From Oikopleura dioica (Eukaryota; Animalia; Chordata): a DNA stretch of 64,000 nucleotides. The stretch spans positions 11,160,001 through 11,224,000 of the forward strand of contig OU015567.1 in assembly GCA_907165135.1 (NCBI GenBank), in the 5' to 3' direction. How positions within the stretch are numbered: the first letter of the stretch is position 1; each line of letters opens with the position of its first letter. The notes beneath the pieces are model-generated. The model had not been told where the DNA came from. It saw only the letters and a program-made list of their open reading frames with translations, and ran no database searches. The position numbers and the translations under genes are program-made. This document shows, piece after piece, positions 46,541-62,764 of the stretch.

Positions 46541-46920
46541 CTGGTGGGGGTCATCTGGATCATCTACTCGCAGAAAATTCAGATAAAATTCAAGCCAATT
46601 TTTGTGCGAAAGGGGTGATTTTTTCATTTAAAAAATATGCCGAGAGAGTGGCAGGATAAAGAATAGTGACCAGGTGCGCTACTTTATTAGCTACAAAACC
46701 GGGAATGTGTTACTATAAGAATAGAGCAAATATAGAATAGAGTGACAAAGCGGTCATACATTTGTCGACAGTGAAACTCTCAATTTTCATCGTTTGAAAA
46801 TATATTTTAAAAAAGATTGGTTTACTGAAGACTAGCTCCGGTAAACAGCTATATTCTACCTACAACCGTGTTAGTGCAATTTTAAAATCATCATCATATT
46901 TTGTGTTGTATGATTTTAGT

Positions 46921-47545
46921 GACTCCGTGCCTTTCGGGCGTATGTAATAGGTTCGATATTCACCTGGTTCGAAGTGTACCTGGTTCGAAGTGTACTCGGT
47001 TCGAAGTGTACTCGGTTCGAAGTGTACCTGGTTCGATATGTACCTGGTTCGAAGTGTACCTGGTTCGAAGTGCAAATTTTCGAAGTACTTCGAACAAATC
47101 CCCTTCGAACCAAGTACACTTCGAACCAAATACACTTTTTTCTAAAAGTGGCTCCGACACAATTAAAACAATTTTCCCAACTTTTTGAGCACATTTCCAA
47201 CAAATTTTCCAACTTTTTCGAACAGATTTCCAACAAATTTTCCAACTTTTTTCGAACAGATTTCCAACAAATTTTTCAACTTCCTCGAACTCATTTCCAA
47301 CAAGAATTCCAACGACAGGGTTCACGCGAAGCGTGCCAATTCCAGCGACAGGGTTCACGCGAAGCGTGCCAATTCCAGCGACAGGGTTCACGCGAAGCGT
47401 GCCAATTTCTCCACTTACAACAGGGTTCACGCGAAGCGTGCCACTTTCTCCAGCCGGCCTGCTCAACTTCCTGCTCCGCCTTCCCTAATTCTAATACCCT
47501 CTATTTGTGCGTCTTAATATATACGCGCGCGGAGCGCGCCCCTCC
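46921..47545. repeat. Composite minisatellite element: 16 bp array with inverted copies, ~31 bp array, 33 bp x4 hairpin array
   Basis: (CC/CT)GGTTCGAAGTGTA-type 16-mers at ~46963-47070, with inverted copies at ~47085-47135. TTCCAACAAATTTTCCAACTTTTTCGAACAGA-type units at ~47170-47305. ATTCCAGCGACAGGGTTCACGCGAAGCGTGCCA x4 at ~47306-47445. GCGCGC-GGA-GCGCGC hairpin near 47524-47538. Confidence 0.9.
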
Positions 47546-47559
47546 CGAACTTTTTCAAC

Positions 47560-47752
47560 AGGTGTATTTTTGGGGAGGGGGTGGGAGGTTGTGGGCGTTT
47601 CCTCAAGGGCTACATTCTCGTGAGACCTGCGGCTTTTTTTGCCCCAATTTTTTATATGTTTGTTATTCGAAGTATAAAAAAAGAGGTGTATTTTTGGGGA
47701 GGGGGTGGGAGGTTGTGGGCGTTTCCTCAAGGGCTACATTCTGGTGAGACCT
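47560..47752. repeat. Direct repeat (~70 bp, period 124) containing a G-quadruplex motif
   Basis: AGGTGTATTTTTGGGAGGGGGTGGGAGGTTGTGGGCGTTTCCTCAAGGGCTACATTCT occurs at 47560 and, nearly identically, at 47684. Confidence 0.85.
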
Positions 47753-48335
47753 ATAGCTTTTTTTTGTAATCGTTTTATATTGTACTCAGCTCGAATATTC
47801 TATCTCAAATTACTTTGGCAGAAGTTAGTTGTGATAAAATAATCGAGCAAAATTTTTTGTGGAAGATGCGATTATTAGTGATAGAGTACTCTTATTCTTG
47901 TATTTTTATGTCGACCTTGCTTTGGCAGAAGCGTTGTCGAAAAATTTTTACTCCTTCGCTAATAAATGCGTTCTTTCGTTTTATACTAAGGTCAAAAATG
48001 GGTGCTCGATTCGATTTAGTTCATAAGTGACGGATATTCTCTAATTTTTGCCTAATTTCGCTTTGGCAGAAGCGTTGAAAGGCATTCTCTAATTTTCCTT
48101 CACTTATGCTCTAGATCTATTGGGCGAAGCTAGTAAAATTGGATTTTTCTCGCTCCTGGTGCACCGGCGCTTGTGCGCTCTCATTGGTCCACGTCGGGTG
48201 AGTCATTCTTTCTATAGAAGTTTTCGTTAAATTTAATGAGAATGCCCTTTTTTCTGCTCTCTTGTGTTAGAAATCTCTTTAACTACCTTCTTATCTTGTT
48301 TTTAACTAAATTTATCTTTTTAAGAGTTTTTGGCG

Positions 48336-49277
48336 ATGGATTTAGAGTCAATTTTAGTCAAATCAAACCGTCTCCTCCAGGAAAAAAAAATTCTTGTATG
48401 CAATCCTTTCTATTTATGATATTGATTTTGTTATAGAGTTTCTGTCAAGCTGCGTCAATCTTGTCCTTGCCAGTCAACGTGGTCAAGCGACTCTTTCAGG
48501 ATAATGTTTCAGCCTTTGGTGGTGAGCCTCTTTATTATCTTTCTGGCGAACGCAATAATGCTATTATTTCTTCTGTCGTCAGTGCTCAAGCGAAAGAATC
48601 TGTCTTGCGTGAACTTTCGTCCGTATATTCGTGTCATGTATGGGGTTTCAAGACCGAGAATTATTGTTCGCATGAGCACGAATTTTTCATGTCTGATATT
48701 CCTTCGTCCATTGGCATAAGGTATAAATTCAACTTTACCATTTCTTTTTTTTTTTTATTCAAGATCGAATGATGTACGAGCGTCAATTGTTCCTCCTATT
48801 TCTTCTTCTACTCGGAAGAATACTAATTCTTGGGACAATCTATTTGATGTTATCGGGCCGAATACGATCTCTGACAAGCCTGTGTGGATTCGTAACAAGA
48901 AGACCAACTGTACATATAGGCGGAGAAAGGTCGCTCGGTCTTTAAATAATCCTCGCGCTGTCACCCCTTCTTCAAACGGTTAGTTTTTTTTTTATCTTTC
49001 TACGAGCGCCTGTCATGCTACATTTACGTTTATTTTAGATGAGGTTGCTGAAAATGCCCTGCATGCTGTTTCTACGAACATTCCGAGTTTCATGAACAAG
49101 CCCGATGATGAAAATCATTTTCAAATGCTGTCTACTTCATCCGATTCAAAGCTCGATCGGCCTGGTCGTTTTTCTCGCTTGTTCTCATCGCTTGACTTGC
49201 AGGTGATTCTCCTTTTTTTTTTGTATATTTTTGTTATTTCTTTATAGGAACCTGATCGCGCCCACAATGCTTCATGA
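48336..49277 (+). CDS. Orphan gene, 5 exons, ~250 aa, unknown function
   Basis: Exons 48336-48380, 48437-~48720, ~48764-48978, ~49040-49202 and 49248-49277 join in frame. The first intron needs a GA donor (CAG|GAAAAA..TAG). The other introns are GT-AG. Confidence 0.65.
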
Positions 49278-49336
49278 TATGAGAGGTAATATTAAGGGAT
49301 TTTTTGTTTATTTCCAGCTTCAATCATTTTTTTACC

Positions 49337-52300
49337 TTACATTTCTTTCTCGTCAAAATATTCTTTGGTAACATGCGTTTTAGGAAGCTCGACTGTCTTA
49401 TTTTCGTACTTGCTTGGATCGTAGTTCCAGTAGGGCGCGAATCTTTTCTTTTCTGCCTTTCCCACTGCTTTTTCTCTATTTGCCTTTCCGCCGCTTCTTC
49501 TATCTTTGATACTGTTGAGCCATCGCTTGTAGTAGCTTTCGTGGAATGTGCACGGTGGCGTTCCTGCAAACAAGTTACGTTTTTATTAATTGTTAGTAAC
49601 TACCTTCATACGGTCCTTCGTTTTCGTCCATTATTATAATTCTTTCGTATTTTAGACAGCACGGGTCTCGTCTCTCTTCAATTTCTGCTTCGGTCGAATC
49701 CTGCGTGTCGACTCGTCTTAAAAATGTTAGGTTGAATATATCGTTATTTTTACCTTAATACCGACGTCTCTGCTGTCTCCTGACGCGCCTGCGTGCAATC
49801 AATTACCGTTTCTAATTTTATTAATAATAAGTATTTTGATTTGTATCTACCTTGCTGGGACGCGATGAAACTTGTTCTTTCTTGTACTTCTGCGTGTTTC
49901 TTTCGTTCGCTTTCAGTTGTTTGCTCTTTCTGGTCTGCTCTTCTGTCTTTTTCAGATTTATCTTCTTTTTCTCTGGTCTCCTTTTCTTTTGCGGCGAATT
50001 CAGCTGCATTTCTTTCTGCGAGGTTGTCTTGGTTTTAATAATTATCATGTTATATAATCTTATTACCAAAGTTCTCATTGCTGAAGCTTCCCGTCGCAAA
50101 ACTCTGCTGGCTTCCTGGGGTCGAATCTTGTGATGCGATGTTATTGTTCCTTCGGTAGATTAAATCTTAATTTTATTGTATGTAAAGCTTGTTTTGTCTG
50201 TATTACCAAATTCCTCATCATCGAATTCATCATCAAATTCGGCCGTGTCATGTTTTACCTCTGCCGGGGCATAGTTGTTTTGGTGATCAGCAATTTTGTG
50301 GTTAACCTTGTAAGGCTGCAAGTTCTCTGGCGAGGACCTTCTTCCACCTGCGATATCTCTGCGGTAAATGCTATAGAAGCGAGGCTCGAATCTAGGTGTA
50401 GCTCGAGTATTTATTACAAGACGACTGATGCGCTAGGCGCCGGACAGTAAGAGCGCGGCCTCAGATAAAGATCTAACGCCTCAGGATTTGCATCCTCACA
50501 TCCCCCTCAGACTTTAGATGAGGTTCTATGTACAGTAACACGTAAAGAAATGTCTTCGTGTGTAGATTCGTTGCTTGAAGAATATCTCTTCGAAATCGAT
50601 TCACTAGTATTTTTGGCCTTTGTTGGAGGCGATATTGAGCTTTGCAGGCTCGAATCGATTTCTCTTTGGACGAGTAGCGGATTCGACGTGTAGTTGAACT
50701 GCGGAAGAGTCGGCTGGGCGCTTACGCGGCGCGCTTGGCACAGTCAGCGGGGCCGTGGGAAAATTCGTCGGAGTTGAATCGGCGGCGGGCGCTGATTGGT
50801 CGACAGCTCCAGCAATGATTGAGAGCTCATTTTCGGCTTCGCTGAAATCCTCAGAGTTCCGAGAATCTTCAAGGGAAGAATTTGCAGAGACAAAAGTCGG
50901 ATCGACTGATCTCATAGTGGCATCTGCTGGGTAGAGAATCTGATGATCAGAAGAGCTCGATGAAGATGAATTTTGCGGTTCGGGTGAGACTTCTGAGTTT
51001 TGTAGCGGTTGTTTCACCGGAGTAATTGATTGATTCTGCAGAGTTTCTGACGCACTTTTCTCACCTTCTGTACTCTTTTCTGTGTTATTTCTAAGCTGTT
51101 CACCTAGAATTTTCGGAGTACCTATTTCAGCTGATTTCGGAGGCGCGTCGGCAGAATTTCGCGTTTTATGACTCTCATCCCCCTCAGACGGGAAATTCGA
51201 AGGTTTTGCTCGATCTTCGACAATACTCGTCAGATGCTGCCAAATGTATAGTTCCTCGTCGCGGTGAATTCGGTCAACTTGGTGTAAATGTTCGGCACGC
51301 TCATCGGCTGGTACCACATGACCACGATAGACCCAGTCACGCCGTTTTCGGCCATCTTCGACCATGCAAACGGACTCGTTTGACTTGATCAGGCGTAGTG
51401 GACCGACGTACTTCAACCCGGTAGTTTTACCTTGTGAATTCAGGTCTCTTTTTAAATACACAAGTTGACCTTCGGTTAAGGTTGATGGAGGTAGCTTTTT
51501 CTCATTGCGGCGATCCGAATCGAGCTCAGCGGCCATGTTTGCGACTTCAACGAGCTTGGAGACGCGCTCGATCCTCTTACGAACGCTGTTCCCATATTCG
51601 CCTGGATTATCGGCGGCTTTATCAATTCTCGCAGTACCGAGCCAACAGTCTCGTGGAATTTGGCCCGTCGCTTTGGATTTGCTGGCGTTCATCGCCCTGA
51701 GAACATAAGGTAAGCACTGTTTCCAATCCATATTTTCCGAATGGCTCATTGAGTACAGCCCATTTTTCAAGCTTCTATGGCTGCGTTCGACAATGCCATT
51801 GGCTTCTGGTCGCCAAGCACAGGTCAAAGTATGGTCGATCTTGTTCGACTTGAAAAATTCATCGAGTAGAGCATTAGTAAAGTGCAATCCACGATCGCTA
51901 TGAACTCGGTTTGGCCAAAAGTCGTACTGAAGGCATACTTGGGTCAGTGCTTGTGCGGCGGAGAAAGCGTTGTCTTTTCGACAAGGCACTGCCCAAAGGA
52001 ATCTGCTGAAAGCACAGATGATAGTGAGTAGATATTTACAACCACTCGCGGGAGTTTTCATCGTGACGTAGTCAATGCAGAGTATATCACCCGGATGTCT
52101 GCCTTTTCGGACCGTACCGGTCGGTGGAGCTTGAGGTCGGCCATGAGCGCCTTTGACTTTTAAGCATGATTTGCACGATCGTACGTAGTTTAAGCAGTCT
52201 GCATCCATGTTTATCCACCAAAGAAGCTTCAAGTGCTCCTTCATTCGCGGCAGTCCACAGTGGCCTTTTAGATCGTGCGCTCTTTTCACGAAAGTAGATC

Positions 52301-55300
52301 TAAGTGACTCTGGAACAACTGCACGTGGGCCGCGTCGATCATTTATCACGAGAGCGTTCGATGTGCGGCAAATAGCGAGCTTCTTTTCGATTTTCAGAAA
52401 ATGGCTCCGGCGGTGGTCTTTTCCGTCGATAACAGTGGCTAGACTCACTTCTGAATTTGAATCCTGAGCCCTTTTTACCGCACCAATAATCGTTTTTAGA
52501 AATGGATCATCTTCCTGGTACGCAGCTAGACAACCAAGTGGGCCGTCAAGTTTCTCCTCCTCAAGTGGGCGCAGAATCCTCGCTGTGTGTACGGCTACTA
52601 GTTGCCGCGCGTTTTTCGGGATCTTCGCTGGATCGGAGCACCAAGAAGGTATGTAGACGACTAGTTTCGAGTCGCCAATGGTCAAGAATCTGCCCGCGTT
52701 TCTGGCTTGATCGAGCTTCGGTTTCTCACTGTCTTCTGCTCCGAAGGGGCGTGAAAGCCAGTCCGCAAAGGTGTTTTTCTGGCCGCGGATAAATTCAAGG
52801 ACGAAGTCGTACTCGGATAGTCGGAGTTGCCAACGGGCAATTTTACTGTTTTTGAAAACAGTTTTGTCGAGATAAGTTAAACTCGCGTGGTCTGTATGGA
52901 CCACAAATTTGGTCCCTTTGAGTATTTTCGAGAGTTTTTCGATTGACCAAAGCACTCCGAAAGCCTCTTTTTCGCTCACATTCCAGTTTCTCTCCGTTTT
53001 ACTGAATGTTTTAGATACAGCGCCGACAAGTCTTGTCGTGCCGTCGATGATCTGTGTCAATACGCCGCCACATGCAGTCAGCGAAGCGTCCGTGTGAAGT
53101 GCGAACGGGTGGCGGAAGTCTGGAAAATTGATGACCGGCATGGACGACAGTCTGGACTTGAGCTTCGAATATGCTTCATCCGCTTCATCGGACCAGACAA
53201 AGGGAGGCGGAACGTATCCGCGTTTACATGGGACGAGCAGGTTAGTAATCGGCTTCATTACTGCTGCGAAAAGATTTTCACCGATTTTCTCGCCCATTCT
53301 CGCTTCCGAAAATTGTTTCAACCATGTTAGACTGCCCACCAAGCTTCGGAGCTCTTTGTGGTTGGTAGGGACAGGCATTTTCAAGAGCGCCTCGGTGTAG
53401 TCTGGATCTGGTTTGACCCCATTTTTAGTAATGACCCGGCCGAGGAACTTGGCTTCCGTCTGGAGAAATTGGCATTTTGATGGCTTCAATCGGACACCAA
53501 AAGCAACCACCGCAGCCAAGAGTTGGCGGAGTGACTTGCGATACGTCGCGAACGAGTCGCCGAACTGGATGACGTCGTCGACGTAGTTGGCCACGTTTTG
53601 GCGCATTTTCACCGTGTCGAGCATTCTGGCGACGCTGCGGGAGAATATCGCTCCGGAAAATGTATAGCCAAATGGCACCCTTGTGAATGCGTATGTCTTC
53701 CCTTTCCACTGGAATGCAGTTTTCACCTGGTCTTCCTCTTTCAAACGGATTTGCCAGTAACCACTCTCAAGGTCCACGCAAGTGAAGTACTTTTGGCCTT
53801 CTCCGAGACTGGCTATGATCTCGTCCATTGCTGGCATCAAAAATGGATCGGACTGTGGGGACAAGCACTGGTTTACTGTCGGAGCGAAGTTAACGACAAA
53901 TCTTGTCGATTTGTCCTTTTTGTCGACCAGCATAATCGCGCTGTTCCATCCTTTTGGATCGTCGATTTCGCGAATTGCTCCTCTGGTCAGCATTTTATCG
54001 ACATGGTCGTCGACGAGTGGGTGTTGTGCCAGCGGGATTGGATGCTGCTTGCGATTTCGTACCTCGCCTGGTACAGTACGTAGCTCAGCTTCTTCCGGAA
54101 AGACGCCAAGTTCAGTTGAGCTAGTGGCAAACGCCTTGCTGAACTCTTTAAGGTCACCAGCGACGATAAGACGTTCTTCAAGTGGCGCGCTGCTCGGCAG
54201 ATCTATACCCAAGTTCCGTTTTACCCACAAGATTGGGTTATCCCTGTTAGCTTGGTGATTTTCGTCCCCGCCGTCTGGTTTGGCGCACCCAACTCGGTAA
54301 TCCTTTACGAGCGGGACCTTCAGTGGGGGATGTGACTTGTACCGACCGTCGAAAATCAGGCGAAAGCTGTTCCGACCGAGTTCAACTGCGCGAACGTCTC
54401 GGCCGCGGATGACGTCTCGTCCCAGCAGGCATGGGCACGTCTCCAAAATGTACACATTGGCATCGAGTTCCGGTCCAGAGCCGAATCGAAGTTTCAGCTG
54501 TAGTAACCCAAGTGGGCTTTGAGCTCGACCGTAGAGCCCCGAAATCGTCAACGGAGCGGGCTTGAGTGACTTCAACATTGCTGCTGGAATTACTCGCCGC
54601 GGCAGTATCGTGGAGAAGCTGCCAGAGTCGATTTCGCATTTGATCTCGAATGACCCGTGTTGGTTCGCAAAGGATGCACTAGCAATAAATGGGTCTTCCA
54701 CTAGTGCAGGTAAGGATTGGTACACCGGAGCGGCTCGAAGAACTGCGAGCGATAGCGCGTCTTCGCTGAAGTCTTCGTCGTGGTCAGCCTCGGTTATGTG
54801 CACTTTTTGGTCGTTTTGACCGTCATCTCCGTCATCCTTAGCCTTTTTACCACTTTTCTGGCCGTTTTGACCCTTTCGACCTTGTTGGCCTTTTTGATTT
54901 TGGCCTTTTTGGTTTTGGCCTTTTTGATTCTGGCCTTTGAAGTTCTTCCCATGCCCATTTTTCTTTCCGTTATACTTCGGTTTACCAACATAGTGCGTAT
55001 TTCCTTCTGTCGGACTCATATTACGTCTTAGGCTTTCGGCGGCGGCGGCGAGTTCATCTGCTTTGAAAATATCCTTCATCCGGTCGATGAGCATGTTGTA
55101 CAACTCGGGCATGTTGACGCGCAGTTTCTCGGTCAGCAGATGCGTCGCGAAGATATTGAAGCAGTCCTGGGCGGACATCTCTTTGTCCTTGTGTGCCCTT
55201 CGGAACTCCTTTGCGCTAGCTTCGTAAGCTTCGTTCAGTTTCGTCTGAACTTTCCCGGCGTAGTCATGGACTGGAAGAGCAATGTCGAACTCGATGTTGG

Positions 55301-56959
55301 CCGCTTCCGATATAACCAACAGGTGGTTTAGCTTTCCTCCGAATTGGTCGTTGATCAGCTTTTTAGCTTTTTGGTACGTGTCGCATGCGTCGAGTTGCTG
55401 GCCAATGGATCTGGACGGAGCAACGTCAAGGTGAGCTCTTAGACACGAAAGAAAAAAATTTTCTTTATCAGGATCAGCCCTCTTCAAAGTTCGATCGTAG
55501 ATGTATGACTTGAAGAAGCTGTCGGCGAGTCCAATGAAATTATCAGTTTCGGTTGGACTAGTGCCTTGGAATTTTGACGATCCGAAGTGTCTGGAGAAGG
55601 CATTATTGATCACTGACGCCGAAATCGCCGACTGACTATTCGACGAAGAAGATACGGAGCCGAGCGGAAGTTTTCCCGACATGACGAGTTTCGTTACTGC
55701 CGCGATGTTATTTTCAACTTCCTGTAATTTACTTTCTAGTGCTGTGCGGCTAGCTGCATCTTCTATATCTTCGAGGCCTTCAGCGTAAGCTTCCTTCTTA
55801 GCTTCGAGCTTTTTGTTTATTTCGAGCGCTTTCTGGACCGTTGTGATGCTATCCAAGTCGAATTTAACAGCTGGCATAGTTCGAGCGGGGACCTTGATTC
55901 GACTGGTTAACTGTAAGCTGAGGTCAGTACCTGGACCGATCCCTCTGACTCAAGTTTTGGATACTTGGTCAGATTCTAGGGATATTCGGTCTGCGAAGGG
56001 ATTCGGCAAAACCACTGGAATACTGTGACGAGATGAGATGGTTGAGGAGCAGCGAGCAAGCGTGTCGAAATTGGGCGTAAGTTATCTGTGAGACTAGCAA
56101 ACTACCTCGGCAGTTCCCTCTGACGCAAGTTTTGGACTACTTGGTCAGATTATAGGGACTTTCGGTGCGCAAAGAGCAGCAGAAATCCCCAAAAGTGCCA
56201 GATCGCAGATTTGCACCAGTTGACGTGCTTGTTAGAGAAGGTAACGTTGATAACGGAATCGACGATCAGATTGATTAGCAGCCCAGGTAAAACTAACGAG
56301 AAGAAGTATCGGAAGAACTGGATTTGTACCTGGCCTGACCCCTGTGACCTTGAGAGAAAGTCACTTGGAGGGGCGTACGATGCGAAAAATTTTGGCGGGC
56401 GAAGTTGTTGTCGACGTTGATAAATTCAGTTGGAGAGCGCGCGGAATGTTTTTGTCGTTGAGTCCCTCGAGCCGTTTTTGACGACTTGGAACGGATTCGA
56501 CAGCTTCCAGAAGACGAAGAAAGGATGTACGTACGTGGGGTTGTTGATTGGAGGGTTTAACTAGGTTCGTTGGATCCAAAAATAAGTACCGGTTTGTGTT
56601 TTTGTGTTACTCGAGGAGCCGTCTTGAACTTCGCAAAAGATCACGAGACACCACTTGTAAGGCTGCAAGTTCTCTGGCGAGGACCTTCTTCCACCTGCGA
56701 TATCTCTGCGGTAAATGCTATAGAAGCGAGGCTCGAATCTAGGTGTAGCTCGAGTATTTATTACAAGACGACTGATGCGCTAGGCGCCGGACAGTAAGAG
56801 CGCGGCCTCAGATAAAGATCTAACGCCTCAGGATTTGCATCCTCACAACCTTTAATTTAAGTCAACAATTTTCCTTTTTTTGCTCTTTACCTTTTTTGGT
56901 TTACGATCATTGTCAACTGGGTTGCATTCCATCGGTTCTGGACTTGTGAAGTTAACCAT
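49337..56959 (-). CDS. Orphan charged/hydrophilic protein gene, 7 exons, host of the LTR retrotransposon
   Basis: Exon 1 (56891-56959) reads MVNFTSPEPMECNPVDNDRKPKK. Exon 2 starts at 50306 (VNHKIADHQNNY..), and five more exons join through phase-compatible ~40 nt GT-AG introns to TAA at 49337. The empty-site reconstruction gives a 41 nt first intron. Confidence 0.8.
50309..56847 (-). mobile_element. Full-length Ty3/gypsy LTR retrotransposon (Tor-like), very recent insertion
   Basis: Identical 192 bp LTRs (50309-50500, 56656-56847) with TG..CA ends. 4 bp TSD ACCT (50305-50308, 56848-56851). PPT GAGGGGGA (50501-50508). TGG-starting PBS-like site 2 nt inside the 5' LTR (~56636-56653). AATAAA within the LTR. 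Confidence 0.97.
50604..55877 (-). CDS. Single gag-pol ORF (1757 aa): Gag, protease, RT, RNase H, integrase; no env
   Basis: PR IDSGS, RT DLESGYWQI..PFG..YVDD, RNase H LHTDAS..KEAFGVLWSI..HTDH, IN zinc-binding H..GH..C..C and core DYV..SDRGLHF..NGIVER, in gypsy domain order. Confidence 0.97.
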   Translation of the reverse strand: MPAVKFDLDSITTVQKALEINKKLEAKKEAYAEGLEDIEDAASRTALESKLQEVENNIAAVTKLVMSGKLPLGSVSSSSNSQSAISASVINNAFSRHFGSSKFQGTSPTETDNFIGLADSFFKSYIYDRTLKRADPDKENFFLSCLRAHLDVAPSRSIGQQLDACDTYQKAKKLINDQFGGKLNHLLVISEAANIEFDIALPVHDYAGKVQTKLNEAYEASAKEFRRAHKDKEMSAQDCFNIFATHLLTEKLRVNMPELYNMLIDRMKDIFKADELAAAAESLRRNMSPTEGNTHYVGKPKYNGKKNGHGKNFKGQNQKGQNQKGQNQKGQQGRKGQNGQKSGKKAKDDGDDGQNDQKVHITEADHDEDFSEDALSLAVLRAAPVYQSLPALVEDPFIASASFANQHGSFEIKCEIDSGSFSTILPRRVIPAAMLKSLKPAPLTISGLYGRAQSPLGLLQLKLRFGSGPELDANVYILETCPCLLGRDVIRGRDVRAVELGRNSFRLIFDGRYKSHPPLKVPLVKDYRVGCAKPDGGDENHQANRDNPILWVKRNLGIDLPSSAPLEERLIVAGDLKEFSKAFATSSTELGVFPEEAELRTVPGEVRNRKQHPIPLAQHPLVDDHVDKMLTRGAIREIDDPKGWNSAIMLVDKKDKSTRFVVNFAPTVNQCLSPQSDPFLMPAMDEIIASLGEGQKYFTCVDLESGYWQIRLKEEDQVKTAFQWKGKTYAFTRVPFGYTFSGAIFSRSVARMLDTVKMRQNVANYVDDVIQFGDSFATYRKSLRQLLAAVVAFGVRLKPSKCQFLQTEAKFLGRVITKNGVKPDPDYTEALLKMPVPTNHKELRSLVGSLTWLKQFSEARMGEKIGENLFAAVMKPITNLLVPCKRGYVPPPFVWSDEADEAYSKLKSRLSSMPVINFPDFRHPFALHTDASLTACGGVLTQIIDGTTRLVGAVSKTFSKTERNWNVSEKEAFGVLWSIEKLSKILKGTKFVVHTDHASLTYLDKTVFKNSKIARWQLRLSEYDFVLEFIRGQKNTFADWLSRPFGAEDSEKPKLDQARNAGRFLTIGDSKLVVYIPSWCSDPAKIPKNARQLVAVHTARILRPLEEEKLDGPLGCLAAYQEDDPFLKTIIGAVKRAQDSNSEVSLATVIDGKDHRRSHFLKIEKKLAICRTSNALVINDRRGPRAVVPESLRSTFVKRAHDLKGHCGLPRMKEHLKLLWWINMDADCLNYVRSCKSCLKVKGAHGRPQAPPTGTVRKGRHPGDILCIDYVTMKTPASGCKYLLTIICAFSRFLWAVPCRKDNAFSAAQALTQVCLQYDFWPNRVHSDRGLHFTNALLDEFFKSNKIDHTLTCAWRPEANGIVERSHRSLKNGLYSMSHSENMDWKQCLPYVLRAMNASKSKATGQIPRDCWLGTARIDKAADNPGEYGNSVRKRIERVSKLVEVANMAAELDSDRRNEKKLPPSTLTEGQLVYLKRDLNSQGKTTGLKYVGPLRLIKSNESVCMVEDGRKRRDWVYRGHVVPADERAEHLHQVDRIHRDEELYIWQHLTSIVEDRAKPSNFPSEGDESHKTRNSADAPPKSAEIGTPKILGEQLRNNTEKSTEGEKSASETLQNQSITPVKQPLQNSEVSPEPQNSSSSSSSDHQILYPADATMRSVDPTFVSANSSLEDSRNSEDFSEAENELSIIAGAVDQSAPAADSTPTNFPTAPLTVPSAPRKRPADSSAVQLHVESATRPKRNRFEPAKLNIASNKGQKY

Positions 56960-57812
56960 TCTAAAATGTTTATTTTAAATTCTTATTCCATGGGCCGTTC
57001 GACATAATTATTTGAATTATCGCCCTTTGTCCTCTCTATAAATTTCTCTTTATTCATTTGCATCTAAAGGTTTATCATTATCTCTCTTAGATTTATTCAT
57101 TTTGAATAAATATTTTTACATGTTTCATTTGCCATTTTAGGCCAATAAACTTTGCTCACATGAGGTTATGCTTTACAAAAGTTTTGTGTCGAACGATTTT
57201 GTCGCCTCAAAATTATTTTTGTTTTAAGTTAACAAACCTTGTTTTAGTCTGTCAGCCGCGTGCGATTGCCTGAAGTTTTCGATCAGCGCCCATTGGATTA
57301 CTTCTTTGTTGTCTTCGCTATTGCCTCTGTTTCGCTAATAGTTCTTGTGTCCCCTTATTTCATTACCTGTTTATACTTGTGTTATTCTAGCGTGAATGCA
57401 GGGTTGTAACTGTTGTTCTCGCGAACGGTTGGAAATTCTAACTTAGGTTCGTTTCGTTCTATTTATTCTTAGGACGTTTCCGTTTTATATGTTTATTATT
57501 CAACTATTAAGCTCAAATTCGAGAACGTTTTTGTTTTTTAAAGTCTTACTGTTTCATTTTATTCGGAGTGAACGGTTTTCGTGTATTTTTTTGGCGGATC
57601 AATTGCTGCTGTCTTCATTTCTCAGCGTTTATTTAAATCATTAAGTGTTCGTATTTGTCCATTGCGAGTCTTTATGGTATTTTTTTGCACCTACCGGCAA
57701 ATTTCACGAATTTCGTGAAAACTGCTGCATTTTTTCGCCAAAAATCTCACTGAAACGCTAATGCTCCGTGTTCAATTGTTCTGATTCGGCTGTAAAAAAA
57801 GGTTTTTTTTGT

Positions 57813-57828
57813 GGCCCTTAAAAGGGCC
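57813..57828 (-). terminator. Replication-dependent histone mRNA 3' stem-loop
   Basis: The minus strand reads AAACA-GGCCCT-TTTA-AGGGCC-ACAAA, 24 nt after the stop of the H3-like ORF. This fits the 6 bp stem / 4 nt loop consensus. Confidence 0.85.
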
Positions 57829-57852
57829 TGTTTTGAAGAGCCAGGTCGGTTC

Positions 57853-58242
57853 TTATCGTCGTCCTCGCAATCGCAGGGCGAGTTCCATGTCGCGCTTTTG
57901 AAGCGTCTTTCTTTTGGCGTGGGTGGTGAACTCTCCCGCATCGTTGAAGATGTCCACAATTCTGCTCTCTACAGCAGTTTGGAGTGCTTCGAGAGCTTTA
58001 GACGCGATGCGGAGGGGGTATTGGATGGTCTTGACCACTTCCTTGGTGAGGCGGGCGAAGGGGAGTTTTCGAATCAGCAGCTGCGTGGACAGTTGCATGT
58101 CGATGGCCTCTCTTTTTGCGACTGTGCCGGGCTTGAACTTGTAGCGCCTTTTCGGGGCGCCATGGCGACATTGACGGTTGTTGCAAGGGGCAGCGACGCT
58201 ACATGTGCCTGTCTTGACGGGGGAGCTTTTGGTTCTTGCCAT
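57853..58242 (-). CDS. Highly divergent, intronless histone H3 variant (129 aa)
   Basis: MARTK start, KPGTVA.RE, STQLLIRKLPFARL, ALEALQ.A.E, HAKRKTL..RDMELA.R.RG. TATAAAA box at 58301-58307 and a histone stem-loop downstream. Confidence 0.92.
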   Translation of the reverse strand: MARTKSSPVKTGTCSVAAPCNNRQCRHGAPKRRYKFKPGTVAKREAIDMQLSTQLLIRKLPFARLTKEVVKTIQYPLRIASKALEALQTAVESRIVDIFNDAGEFTTHAKRKTLQKRDMELALRLRGRR

Positions 58243-58542
58243 TCGCTTAGTCTTCGCTGTGTTCAGGTTGGACTGTGGTTGGCTGTGCTCCTGTCATCCC
58301 TTTTATAATTTGGGTTGCGATGTGAGGGAGACAACCCTTTCCCCCAAAAAGGGTTTAACTACAAACAATTCTAGAGAAAACTTTCCGGTGGCCAATAAAT
58401 TGTCAGAATTTTGGTTTCCTCCCTTTTTTGGTCTAGAATTTTTAACGTTTTTTTGTGGATTTCCGACTTAAATATCTTATGTTCTTGATTTTTTGCCATT
58501 ATTTGCTTGTTAAATTTGTATTTATTTTAATTTTTAGAAATT

Positions 58543-60178
58543 ATGGCCGTCGAAAATCGGATGATTTTGTGGTTCGAAGAGTGCTGTCATAATATCTTGG
58601 CGGAGAACGTTGATGATGCTTTAAAAATGGCTGAGAGTGAAAGCGAAGCATGCAAAAAATTTCTTAGAGTAAATGCCATTAATTGGTCTCCGAAATTTAT
58701 CCTTCTGCGCATTACGATCAAAGAAAGATTGAAGATTGCAATTTCGGACCAAATCCCATTGGAAAGGATTGAAAAAATCGTTCTCTATGACGCGGATGAT
58801 AACAAAATTCAACTTATCTCCGAAGAATCGATTGAAGCAGGTTTCTGGGAGTCAGTTAACGATTTACTTGTTTGCCCAAATGGAATATTGAAGAAAGACG
58901 TTAACTTAAGAAAACAATATGATCAATCTGCGATTCAAATGGCAGATGAAATAATAAGGAACTGTGATTCTTGCTCTGTTAAAACTTGGGCTGAACGCAA
59001 TGACAGATTTGATTCTGAAGATTGGACGAATAATCTGCTGATATGTATCAAAGGAAGATCCTGTAACGAGACACGAATAGAAAGCTGGGTGACTGCGCTC
59101 AAGGCGAGAGAGTCTTGTTTGGGAGACTTAAAATGGAGAATCAAATTCGGACCTTATTCATTTACTCCGGTAAGGACTTGAAATATTTTGCATTTTATCG
59201 TTTTTCTTTTAGAAGTGCTTCCCTTCTGGTAAAACAACTGCAAAGGATTGCATAACAATCAAACCGCCGCATCTTAAATGGAAACCTGATGTTAGAATGA
59301 TTGAAGAAATCAAGAAGATGTCTGACTATGGCGTAACAATATTTGAAAACTATGTTAATTTTCACCCTGCGGATTTATCTCGTCTCTCCGAAGATAGATA
59401 TATCATCAGAAAGTGCATGGCAATCTTCAACGCGAACAGGAACAATATCGAGATGGCTTTACTGAATAAGCCTAGGGCACTTAACATCCTGCTTTCTTTG
59501 TTGGATGATGAATCAAACTCCGATGGGACAATGATGACTATTCTCGACGAAATTTCTAATGCCAGGATGGCTCAATCTGAAAAACATTTGCTTAAAGAGC
59601 TTGAAAAACTGCTCTCAAAGCTTTATCCCTCCAAAAAATCAGTTGCCGCGCGCAAGATAACACTTGAGAAAATAAGAAAAAGCGAGAGAAGATGGAACTG
59701 GGTGGACATAATTCAGGAAAAATTTGACCTGGACGTTGTTGTCATGCATGAAATAAAACAGTTCGGCCGTAAGCTTTCTAATGGAATCGATACTAATGAC
59801 GTGATTGTACGGCTTCTCGACAAAATAACCTGGCGAAATGGTCATTTTGGTATGGAACAGCGTGTCAAATCCCGTGGATATAATCATGACGATCATCATT
59901 TCTGTTGGTTTGGTAATAATGAAGAGGAAATTATAAGAACATTCATCGAATACATCACCGGAAACGCTGTTTCACAGCAAGAATTATTTCAATTATTTGG
60001 TCATTTTAATAAGGACGAATTGCTTAATCAAAGCCCCAGTGAAGAGCTCGATGGACAGAATAGACAATGTAGAAAAAGGTCGGGTGCTAAGGTGGACCGA
60101 ATGAATACAGTCGAAAACAGATGTCCTTGCATCAAGTTTGTTGAAAAACATGAGGAATCGTCAAAGAAAAATGTCTAG
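58543..60178 (+). CDS. Orphan gene, two exons (58543-59169, 59213-60178), ~530 aa
   Basis: The 212-aa and 293-aa ORFs join in phase 0 across a 43 nt GT-AG intron. No domain recognised. Confidence 0.75.
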
Positions 60179-61066: not shown

Positions 61067-61421
61067 TTTTAAAAAACGTTATTGTGAGGATTGATTATGC
61101 TTCCCTTTTTCCTTCTTAAATACTCTGCAGTTTTTCCTCATTTTGGTTGAATTTGTTGTTTTTGCGCATTGCAATCGCTTAATTGTGGCTTTTCGATAAA
61201 TTGGCAAAATAATGCAATCAGGCGTAGTCTATTTCTGTTGCTTCACATTGGTTGAGGACTCGCTTGGTTAAGCAGTTTACTTTGAATCAAATACCACTTG
61301 GGTGGGATACATTTATTCTTAACAGGTCTCGCTTATTGATTTTGAGACTGTTTCCTTTATGTCTTCTTTAAAAATCATCTTTGTTAAGATTTTTTGCTTA
61401 TTTTTTTGAGAGTTTTATTTT

Positions 61422-61969
61422 AATTCTCTAGAAAAAGTGGTGTTTCTCACCTACCTGAGAAGCTCAAAACACTTCTCAGTATGCTTCTCAGGCTCTAGAA
61501 AAAATTTGTTTACAAAAACAAGTTCCCAAAACAAATTCTTTCTAGAGCCTGAGAAGCACACTGAGAAGTGTTTTGAGCTTCTCAGGTAGGTGAGAAACAC
61601 CACTTTTTCTAGAGAATTGTCGTTGTCAAGATTTGTCGTTAATTCTGAATGAGTATTCTTGTTTTTTTTTGTGATGTTGCACTCCATTCTATTTTCGCTA
61701 GGAAATGAAAGTTTAAAGACTGGGAGTTTTGGTATTCCGATAGTTTTATTTAAATTCTCTAGAAAACCTGGTGTTTCCCGCCGAACTGAGAAGCGCAAAA
61801 AACTTCTGCGTGTTCTTCTCAGGCTCTAGAAAAAATTTGTTTACAAAAACTCCACTCTTTTTGGACATATAATTCTCAAAACAAATTTTTTCTAGAGCCT
61901 GAGAAGAACACGCAGAAGTGCTTTGCGCCTCTCAGTTCGGCGAGAAACACCAGGTTTTCTAGCGAATTT
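61422..61969. repeat. Two tandem ~200 bp palindromes (61422-61618, 61752-61969) within a ~330 bp duplicated unit; foldback/MITE-like
   Basis: Each copy has arms of ~80-90 bp (AATTCTCTAGAAAA..TTTTCTAGAGAATT) around a short spacer. The flanking sequence is also duplicated. Confidence 0.9.
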
Positions 61970-62764
61970 TTGCTGTCAAATTTTGAATGAGTATTCTCGT
62001 TTGTTTGGGCGATGTCGAGTCCTATTGTATTGTTTTAGGGAAATAATTGAAATAAAAGTTAAAAATTTGTAGTTTTGGTATTCTGATGTCTGCTATGATC
62101 TCTTATCGCGCGCCTCGATTTTTATTTCGGCGCCCACTGGGAGGTTTTCTTCGTTGATTTCATGTTTTTGTTTTACAATTTGGCGCTATCTCTGCCTGAG
62201 CTCTGTCACAAAAAGATATATGATAACATAAAATGCAAGAGTTTTCTACCTTTGACTCGAACAGACATTAACAGAAAATTGGAAGCAGTCCAATTATATA
62301 ATTGATAAACCTGCAAGAAGAATTCCCTTTTTGTCAAAATTGTTAGGCCTTTTATGAGATAACAAGTAATTCAACGTTTTTTTTTTTAACATCTTGAATA
62401 TATTAGCAGTCACGAAATTTGAAACAGTTGTATTTTTTCTATGAAGGCAGGTATAATGTGAAGTTGACTGCTTGTAATCGTTGGGAAAGAAGTTGATCAT
62501 TTTCAATTGAAGATATGTCTATTATAAAGGGTTATTGTAGTCTTTTTTGAGGTTTTTTTTAATAAAAATTTTTCTTACGTTAAATTATGCAGCATTGTCT
62601 TTTCAATAACACTTGAAGAATAATTTGTAGAAACTGTGGTGAGTCGGGCAGTGCTAGAAAATGGTTATTATTTTTTTTTTTGTGTTAAGTTAAGTTTAGG
62701 ATTGCCAAAGTTGACCTTTCATGATTTCATAAGTTTAGTTTACCTTATAATGAATTGCTGGAAA

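Follow-up and report, generated by a model that had tools for sequence, protein, structure and literature searches.

Our analysis of the window (the whole 64,000-nt stretch of Oikopleura dioica DNA studied here) identifies a young, env-less Ty3/gypsy retrotransposon, Tor-type by structure, domains and host, that lies exactly on the AG/GT acceptor of the first intron of a host gene. The element and the site are real, and the splice-like ends of the element are not far beyond chance. We consider it likely that this is an ordinary young insertion: most host transcripts would splice out the native 41-nt intron, read into the LTR and stop, possibly with some leakage. The features behind this reading are seen directly, namely the anatomy of the element, the complete native intron, the stop after 9 codons, an AATAAA about 90 nt into the LTR and the mirrored ends. 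On present evidence we see a single insertion by a member of a known family, at a fortunate site, and published precedents exist for both routes proposed for splicing it out.

The element and its target site

The element measures 6,539 nt, lies on the minus strand and is bounded by a pair of LTRs with TG...CA ends, which are 192 nt each and identical in sequence (5' LTR, 56656..56847; 3' LTR, 50309..50500). A primer-binding-site-like stretch (56636..56653, minus strand) begins 2 nt past the 5' LTR with TGG, a start common to the closest relative (locus L002), and a polypurine tract (50501..50510, minus strand) stands directly before the 3' LTR. A single gag-pol ORF of 1,757 aa (50604..55877, minus strand) encodes reverse transcriptase (residues 675-813), RNase H (895-1023) and integrase (1188-1357), in this order. 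Direct LTRs, primer site, purine tract, a 4-nt duplication, the Pol order and the Oikopleura dioica host are all those of a Ty3/gypsy (Tor) element. About 100 nt separate the end of the gag-pol ORF (50604) from the 3' LTR, and no env ORF follows pol, which rules out an env-bearing Tor of the 3a/3b/4b type. The 91 matches to the element Pol include no named Tor Pol, and IMG/VR holds 0 matches to the LTR start and no confirmed Pol relative; in the window the LTR start is found twice, against 0 expected (100 shuffles).

The leader of the element holds two copies of a stem-loop (55925..56190, minus strand). The copies lie at 56100-56190 and 55925-56000 (minus strand) and the structure is kept in L002 (600-690); across the three sequences 4 of the 20 predicted pairs are altered on both sides. 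It has no Rfam match (50200-58400 scanned), and we guess that it possibly serves in packaging or dimerisation. An ORF in the leader (56150-56425) was rejected, as its conservation in L002 is unconvincing, with short matches in several frames and stops.

The initial annotation had placed the AGGT target-site duplication exactly on the AG/GT acceptor of host intron 1, and both copies are indeed found in the sequence (minus strand): the 5' copy at 56848..56851 and the 3' copy at 50305..50308, the latter providing a distal AG at 50308-50307. AGGT accounts for 0.27% of the 4-mers in the window and an AG/GT acceptor was read in 2 of 21 host acceptors. By a rough estimate, which assumes about 5 introns per gene and concerns a case chosen after the fact, the chance of striking an AG/GT acceptor is of the order of 1e-4 per insertion. 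The AGGT site is the 3' end of an already existing intron and not a position within an exon. Intron gain at an AGGT proto-splice site is thus ruled out, since the site is an old intron end and no new exonic intron position is formed.

The host gene and the predicted fate of its transcript

The host gene is read from the minus strand. Its exon 1 (56891..56959; ATG, 23 codons) matches the start of the annotated protein P0092 and of its paralog P0093, and is followed by native intron 1 (56850..56890), which is complete with 41 nt, its own donor and a proximal acceptor in a region of 85% A+T. On the other side of the element lie exons 2-7 (49337..50306), namely exon 2 (50306-50207), exon 3 (50165-50067), exon 4 (50027-49851), exon 5 (49811-49754), exon 6 (49716-49604) and exon 7 (49563-49337), with five GT-AG introns of 37-41 nt between them. 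The seven-exon model reproduces P0092 (280 aa), a protein annotated in O. dioica, without a difference, and a query with exon 7 returned two proteins labelled Oikopleura dioica by their source, P0092 among them. A second gene of the window is present in the same annotation (P0094, 17 exact blocks); the window exons agree at 100% with P0092 and with P0094, both attributed to O. dioica by their source. The paralog P0093 (53% identity) spans exon 1 and exon 2, and its length differs from that of the host protein by one residue at their junction. The host gene is therefore credible, and small insertions at this junction are probably tolerated. The search of 1.84 billion representatives returned no informative homolog of the host protein, its three matches being the paralog P0093, the repeat protein P0095 and a fragment of 63 aa (P0096).

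Immediately before the host gene, on its upstream side, we observed a divergent histone H3-like gene (57853-58293, minus strand; Pfam Histone, E 3e-29), accompanied by a histone 3' stem-loop (57794-57833, minus strand), which is the only Rfam match in 50200-58400.

The splice-like ends described earlier are present: T/GTGAGG, with the donor-like GTGAGG at 56841..56846 (minus strand; donor at 56846), and TTGCAG/CCTTACA, with the acceptor-like CAG at 50316..50318 (minus strand; acceptor at 50316). Translation confirmed that four routes stay in frame, one giving the wild-type protein and the others adding PYK, V or VPYK. It also confirmed that read-in to the 5' LTR meets a stop after 9 codons, and the LTR carries AATAAA at 56757..56762 (minus strand), in the block best conserved with the related loci L001 and L002. 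The claim of a possible intron gain is not supported at this locus, as the wild-type route, from exon 1 to the distal AG, merely lengthens intron 1 from 41 to 6,584 nt. The routes through the LTR donor need a 3-nt exon here.

The course of events that we favour begins with the recent insertion of an env-less Ty3/gypsy element, which would have duplicated the AG/GT acceptor of host intron 1. The short native intron should be removed first, because it stands upstream as a complete 41-nt intron in a genome where the median intron is reported as 49 nt (PMC8008620) and 2.4% of introns as longer than 1 kb (PMC4122922). The transcript would then read into the LTR, where an early stop and LTR polyadenylation are predicted. 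A rescue would need re-splicing from a donor 0 or 3 nt behind the junction just formed before the AATAAA is used, and the re-use of a donor at such a distance may be suppressed, given that in Drosophila the EJC is reported to block regenerated splice sites (PMC8184009). The far acceptors are presumably weak, being now preceded by G+C-rich LTR sequence. Full-length mRNA would then be a minor leak at most, and the allele may persist because it is young, because the line is cultured or because the paralog buffers its loss.

One would argue that masking takes place at this single locus, and we regard this as possible, though with clearly less confidence. The exon 1 donor would often skip the proximal AG and join the duplicated AG, which would yield enough wild-type protein; in a variant, the AG/GT would act as a recursive site. 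Either way this would be a lucky site, with neither a family property nor a new intron position. A bypass from exon 1 to the duplicated AG is possible, as the initial annotation held, and the public gene model P0092 is exactly its product, the wild-type protein. However, the annotation behind P0092 was made by AUGUSTUS with RNA hints (PMC8008620), and since an empty allele gives the same junction, the model is not evidence of splicing across the element. Masking at this locus would also agree with the AGGT-duplication model, established in principle (PMC3443670), and with an Oikopleura spliceosome described as permissive (PMC4122922). Long introns do occur nearby, in P0094 (1,112 and 2,511 nt), a point against our preferred reading. 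Against it, the native acceptor is intact and nearer. The undamaged state of exons 2-7 was correctly noted before, but we reject it as a sign of masking, because with identical LTRs the insertion is too recent for decay to show, and intact downstream exons are expected for any such insertion.

The strength of the competing sites was estimated with a splice model built from a small set of 21 predicted host introns, 16 from P0094 and 5 from the host gene. To obtain a bigger training set, introns were also scanned for ab initio, but this was dropped because decoy ends hit as often (50 GT-AG donors against 37-157 for six decoys). Position +3 is A in 19 of the 20 host GT donors and G in none, and one plausible host intron with a GTGAG donor was seen (33941). 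On this scale the native donor reaches 2.3 bits, the duplicated AG/GT donor -5.5 and the LTR donor -8.5; for the acceptors, the native one scores -0.4, the distal AG -4.9 and the LTR CAG -7.3. The last two fall below all 21 leave-one-out acceptor scores (lowest -4.2), which the native acceptor does not, and among the 421 AGs of the element 149 outscore the LTR CAG and 76 outscore the distal AG. The sequence before the far acceptors is 40% and 55% A+T, compared with 65-95% in host introns. The low scores of the distal AG and of the duplicated donor thus speak against masking at this locus.

The origin of the splice-like ends

The initial annotation regarded the LTR ends as splice sites that allow any sense exonic copy of the family to be spliced out with 12 nt left behind. 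That the LTR donor and acceptor are under selection for this purpose, so that the element would be an LTR introner, seems improbable to us. Both GTGAGG and TTGCAG lie inside an imperfect terminal inverted repeat, which matches at 6/7, 11/13 and 18/24 positions depending on the length considered; over nt 3-24 it matches at 16/22, a level equalled only once elsewhere among about 13,000 places in the element. The ends of L002 are mirrored likewise (10/12), its CAG pairing with CTG. Terminal inverted repeats of LTRs are integrase attachment sites. The notion of evolved splice sites is disfavoured by this position in a mirrored terminal repeat and by the poor scores against host introns, and the splice-like ends are likely by-products of integrase-binding inverted repeats. 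If the donor before the poly(A) signal and the acceptor in U5 were strong ones, one would, moreover, expect the RNA of the element itself to suffer. By chance, 30% of random LTR ends would have a YAG with 12 nt or fewer behind it, and 8.7% would have one in frame. The LTR of the window is in frame also in the antisense orientation (21 nt left), a point in favour of a family-level property.

We looked for conservation of these features among 76 metagenome loci with Pol relatives. Screens of 18 and of 37 loci, in which purine tracts, primer sites and mirrors were inspected visually, gave readable LTR ends in 9 loci of 33-62% identity, and candidates in more distant loci were left out. Counting the window, the left ends start with TGT in 9/9 cases and carry GTRAG in 5/9, three of these five belonging to one clade. 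Eight right ends were read and seven were long enough for scoring; the last YAG is followed by 7 (window), 9, 8, 9, 26, 26 and 12 nt, so that it stands 7-12 nt from the end in 5/7. If the duplication is 4 nt, the window alone is in frame (1/7, and thus 0/6 relatives), while 3/6 relatives are in frame if 5 nt are assumed; Tor duplications are given as 4 or 5 nt (PMC4402516).

In the closest relative, L002 (62% identity), both motifs are kept, but a 2-nt insertion separates the CAG from the end, so that 9 nt follow the CAG compared with 7 in the window, and the residue would be 14 nt with a 4-nt duplication and 15 nt with a 5-nt one. The motifs are kept, GTGAGG in L001 and L002 and TTGCAG in L002, and the spacing differs. 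The 14-nt residue of L002 and the 0/6 relatives in frame with a 4-nt duplication speak against the family-wide 12-nt rule, with 3/6 in frame at 5 nt on the other side; as the duplication length is assumed, the frame test weakens the rule and does not kill it. The kept motifs and the existence of LTR introners and of introners with a 12-nt residue favour selection on the ends, whereas the need for a 3-nt exon in the LTR-donor routes and the presence of only 2-3 copies per DNA run, with different flanks, oppose it. We also give little credence to a bolder reading, by which in the Tor lineage of the window element, L001 and L002 the inverted repeat bound by integrase would also serve as donor and acceptor whichever way the element lies (12 nt left in sense, 21 nt in antisense orientation). 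Perhaps combined with a preference for AGGT-like targets, this would let insertions in genes be spliced in frame and rise to homozygosity as an autonomous LTR introner.

Splice-like features far stronger than those of the window LTR were seen in the LTRs of three marine relatives: L022 (36-122) holds an 87-nt A+T-rich GT-AG intron-like segment, and L005 (157-182) and L008 (5459-5486) hold a branch-like motif, a pyrimidine run and CAG. A second LTR family, seen in loose ends of runs X1, X2 and X4, shares with the element only the central block around AATAAA (56741-56775, 50394), which is the same block that is conserved in L001 and L002.

Occurrence of the insertion and known precedents

The run search, which listed 24 runs, showed no RNA run carrying the sequence, and this counts neither for nor against splicing. 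Contigs of four DNA runs were compared with the window. Runs X1, X2 and X4 come from one study, and one of them is possibly the window's own sample; X5 comes from another study and carries another organism label. Records passing from host flank to LTR are present in X1, X2 and X4: one X4 record bridges the 3' junction (31-letter rule), and records of X1 and X2 reach 28-30 letters into the LTR. The X2 contigs give no cover at 50245-50308, a hole that proves nothing. None of the 5 listed joints is an empty-site joint, and in X1 the depth of the element (60-85) and of the flanks (69-79) is alike. The three runs thus look homozygous or hemizygous for the insertion. Henriet 2015 (PMC4402516) describes Tor insertions as hemizygous, present in under 5% of animals and never homozygous. 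The absence of the empty site from the listed joints, in three runs of one study, fits with masking at this locus, and the state of the insertion is the best hint of its tolerance; inbreeding, a paralog or a non-essential gene explain it equally.

Among the loose ends listed, other copies of the family have 3' flanks starting with CTAT (X2) and ATTT (X5). In a third copy (X5 loose end, window 50300) the 3' flank aligns 9 nt into the target sequence seen in the window. That sequence includes an 8-bp palindrome, and the match could hint at a target preference. In X5 the element is present with few differences, and the host flanks have no depth at 85% likeness (48000-58600). This may reflect a different lineage with a near-identical element or a missing locus, contig absence being no proof. 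Homopolymer differences of 1-2 letters in two or three runs (49579, 56448, 56577, 56634 and 57586, none at the junctions) are probably assembly slips in the window.

The element resembles the Tor elements described in PMC4402516 in host genus, Ty3/gypsy domain order, near-identical LTRs, 4-nt duplication, intact ORF and low copy number; it differs in having no env and in that no empty allele was met in three runs of one study here, while the insertions reported there are hemizygous and rare. PMC3443670 lists a route by AGGT duplication as well as intron gains derived from transposons in Oikopleura. The locus shares with that route the AGGT on both sides, which gives AG/GT and AG/G sites, and a frame-neutral path. 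However, the classical AGGT is exonic and gives a new intron, whereas here it is part of an acceptor that was already there and has a competitor upstream, the complete short intron.

In the literature searched, splicing at the ends of Tor elements is nowhere described. Drosophila 412 in vermilion and maize Ds1 in Adh1-Fm335 are reportedly spliced from the host transcript via cryptic sites near the element ends. In those cases splicing was demonstrated, while for the window element it is predicted from sequence. The 412 copy is antisense to vermilion according to PMC4691828.

LTR elements make up about 12% of the classified introners in the account of PMC12130899, which includes full-length and solo-LTR Copia introns of Panicum virgatum. 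As for the window element, removal of an LTR element as an intron has been proposed in these cases, but they are multi-copy, annotated as introns and checked with RNA, and we have one locus known from sequence. The introners of Aureococcus (bioRxiv 10.1101/2022.06.06.494994) likewise carry both splice sites and add 12 nt, i.e. four residues; there, 4 nt come from the element and 8 nt from the duplication in a repeated family, whereas here the split is 8 + 4 and is not conserved in L002. Transposon-derived introns of Fritillaria borealis, as described in PMC11282704, are also found in a larvacean and have terminal repeats and duplications, but they are MITE-like and genome-wide, have non-canonical ends and are not LTR elements. 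PMC13326754 added nothing to the comparison. No defining feature of an introner is established for the window element, which is known from one locus and sits on an old intron.

If carriers make full-length mRNA, the locus would test in nature whether the spliceosome of a compact genome, accustomed to 40-nt introns, can skip an intact acceptor and cross 6.5 kb, and it would also bear on how Tor insertions escape purifying selection. If the LTR-borne sites were used family-wide, they would represent an RNA-based source of new introns in Oikopleura, and an autonomous LTR introner, should that reading be true, would have been seen in action in a chordate whose intron turnover is heavy.

Visual inspection of the window also showed arrays of short tandem repeats, together with two hairpin-like (MITE-like) repeats related to each other, at 46900-47750 and 61420-61970.
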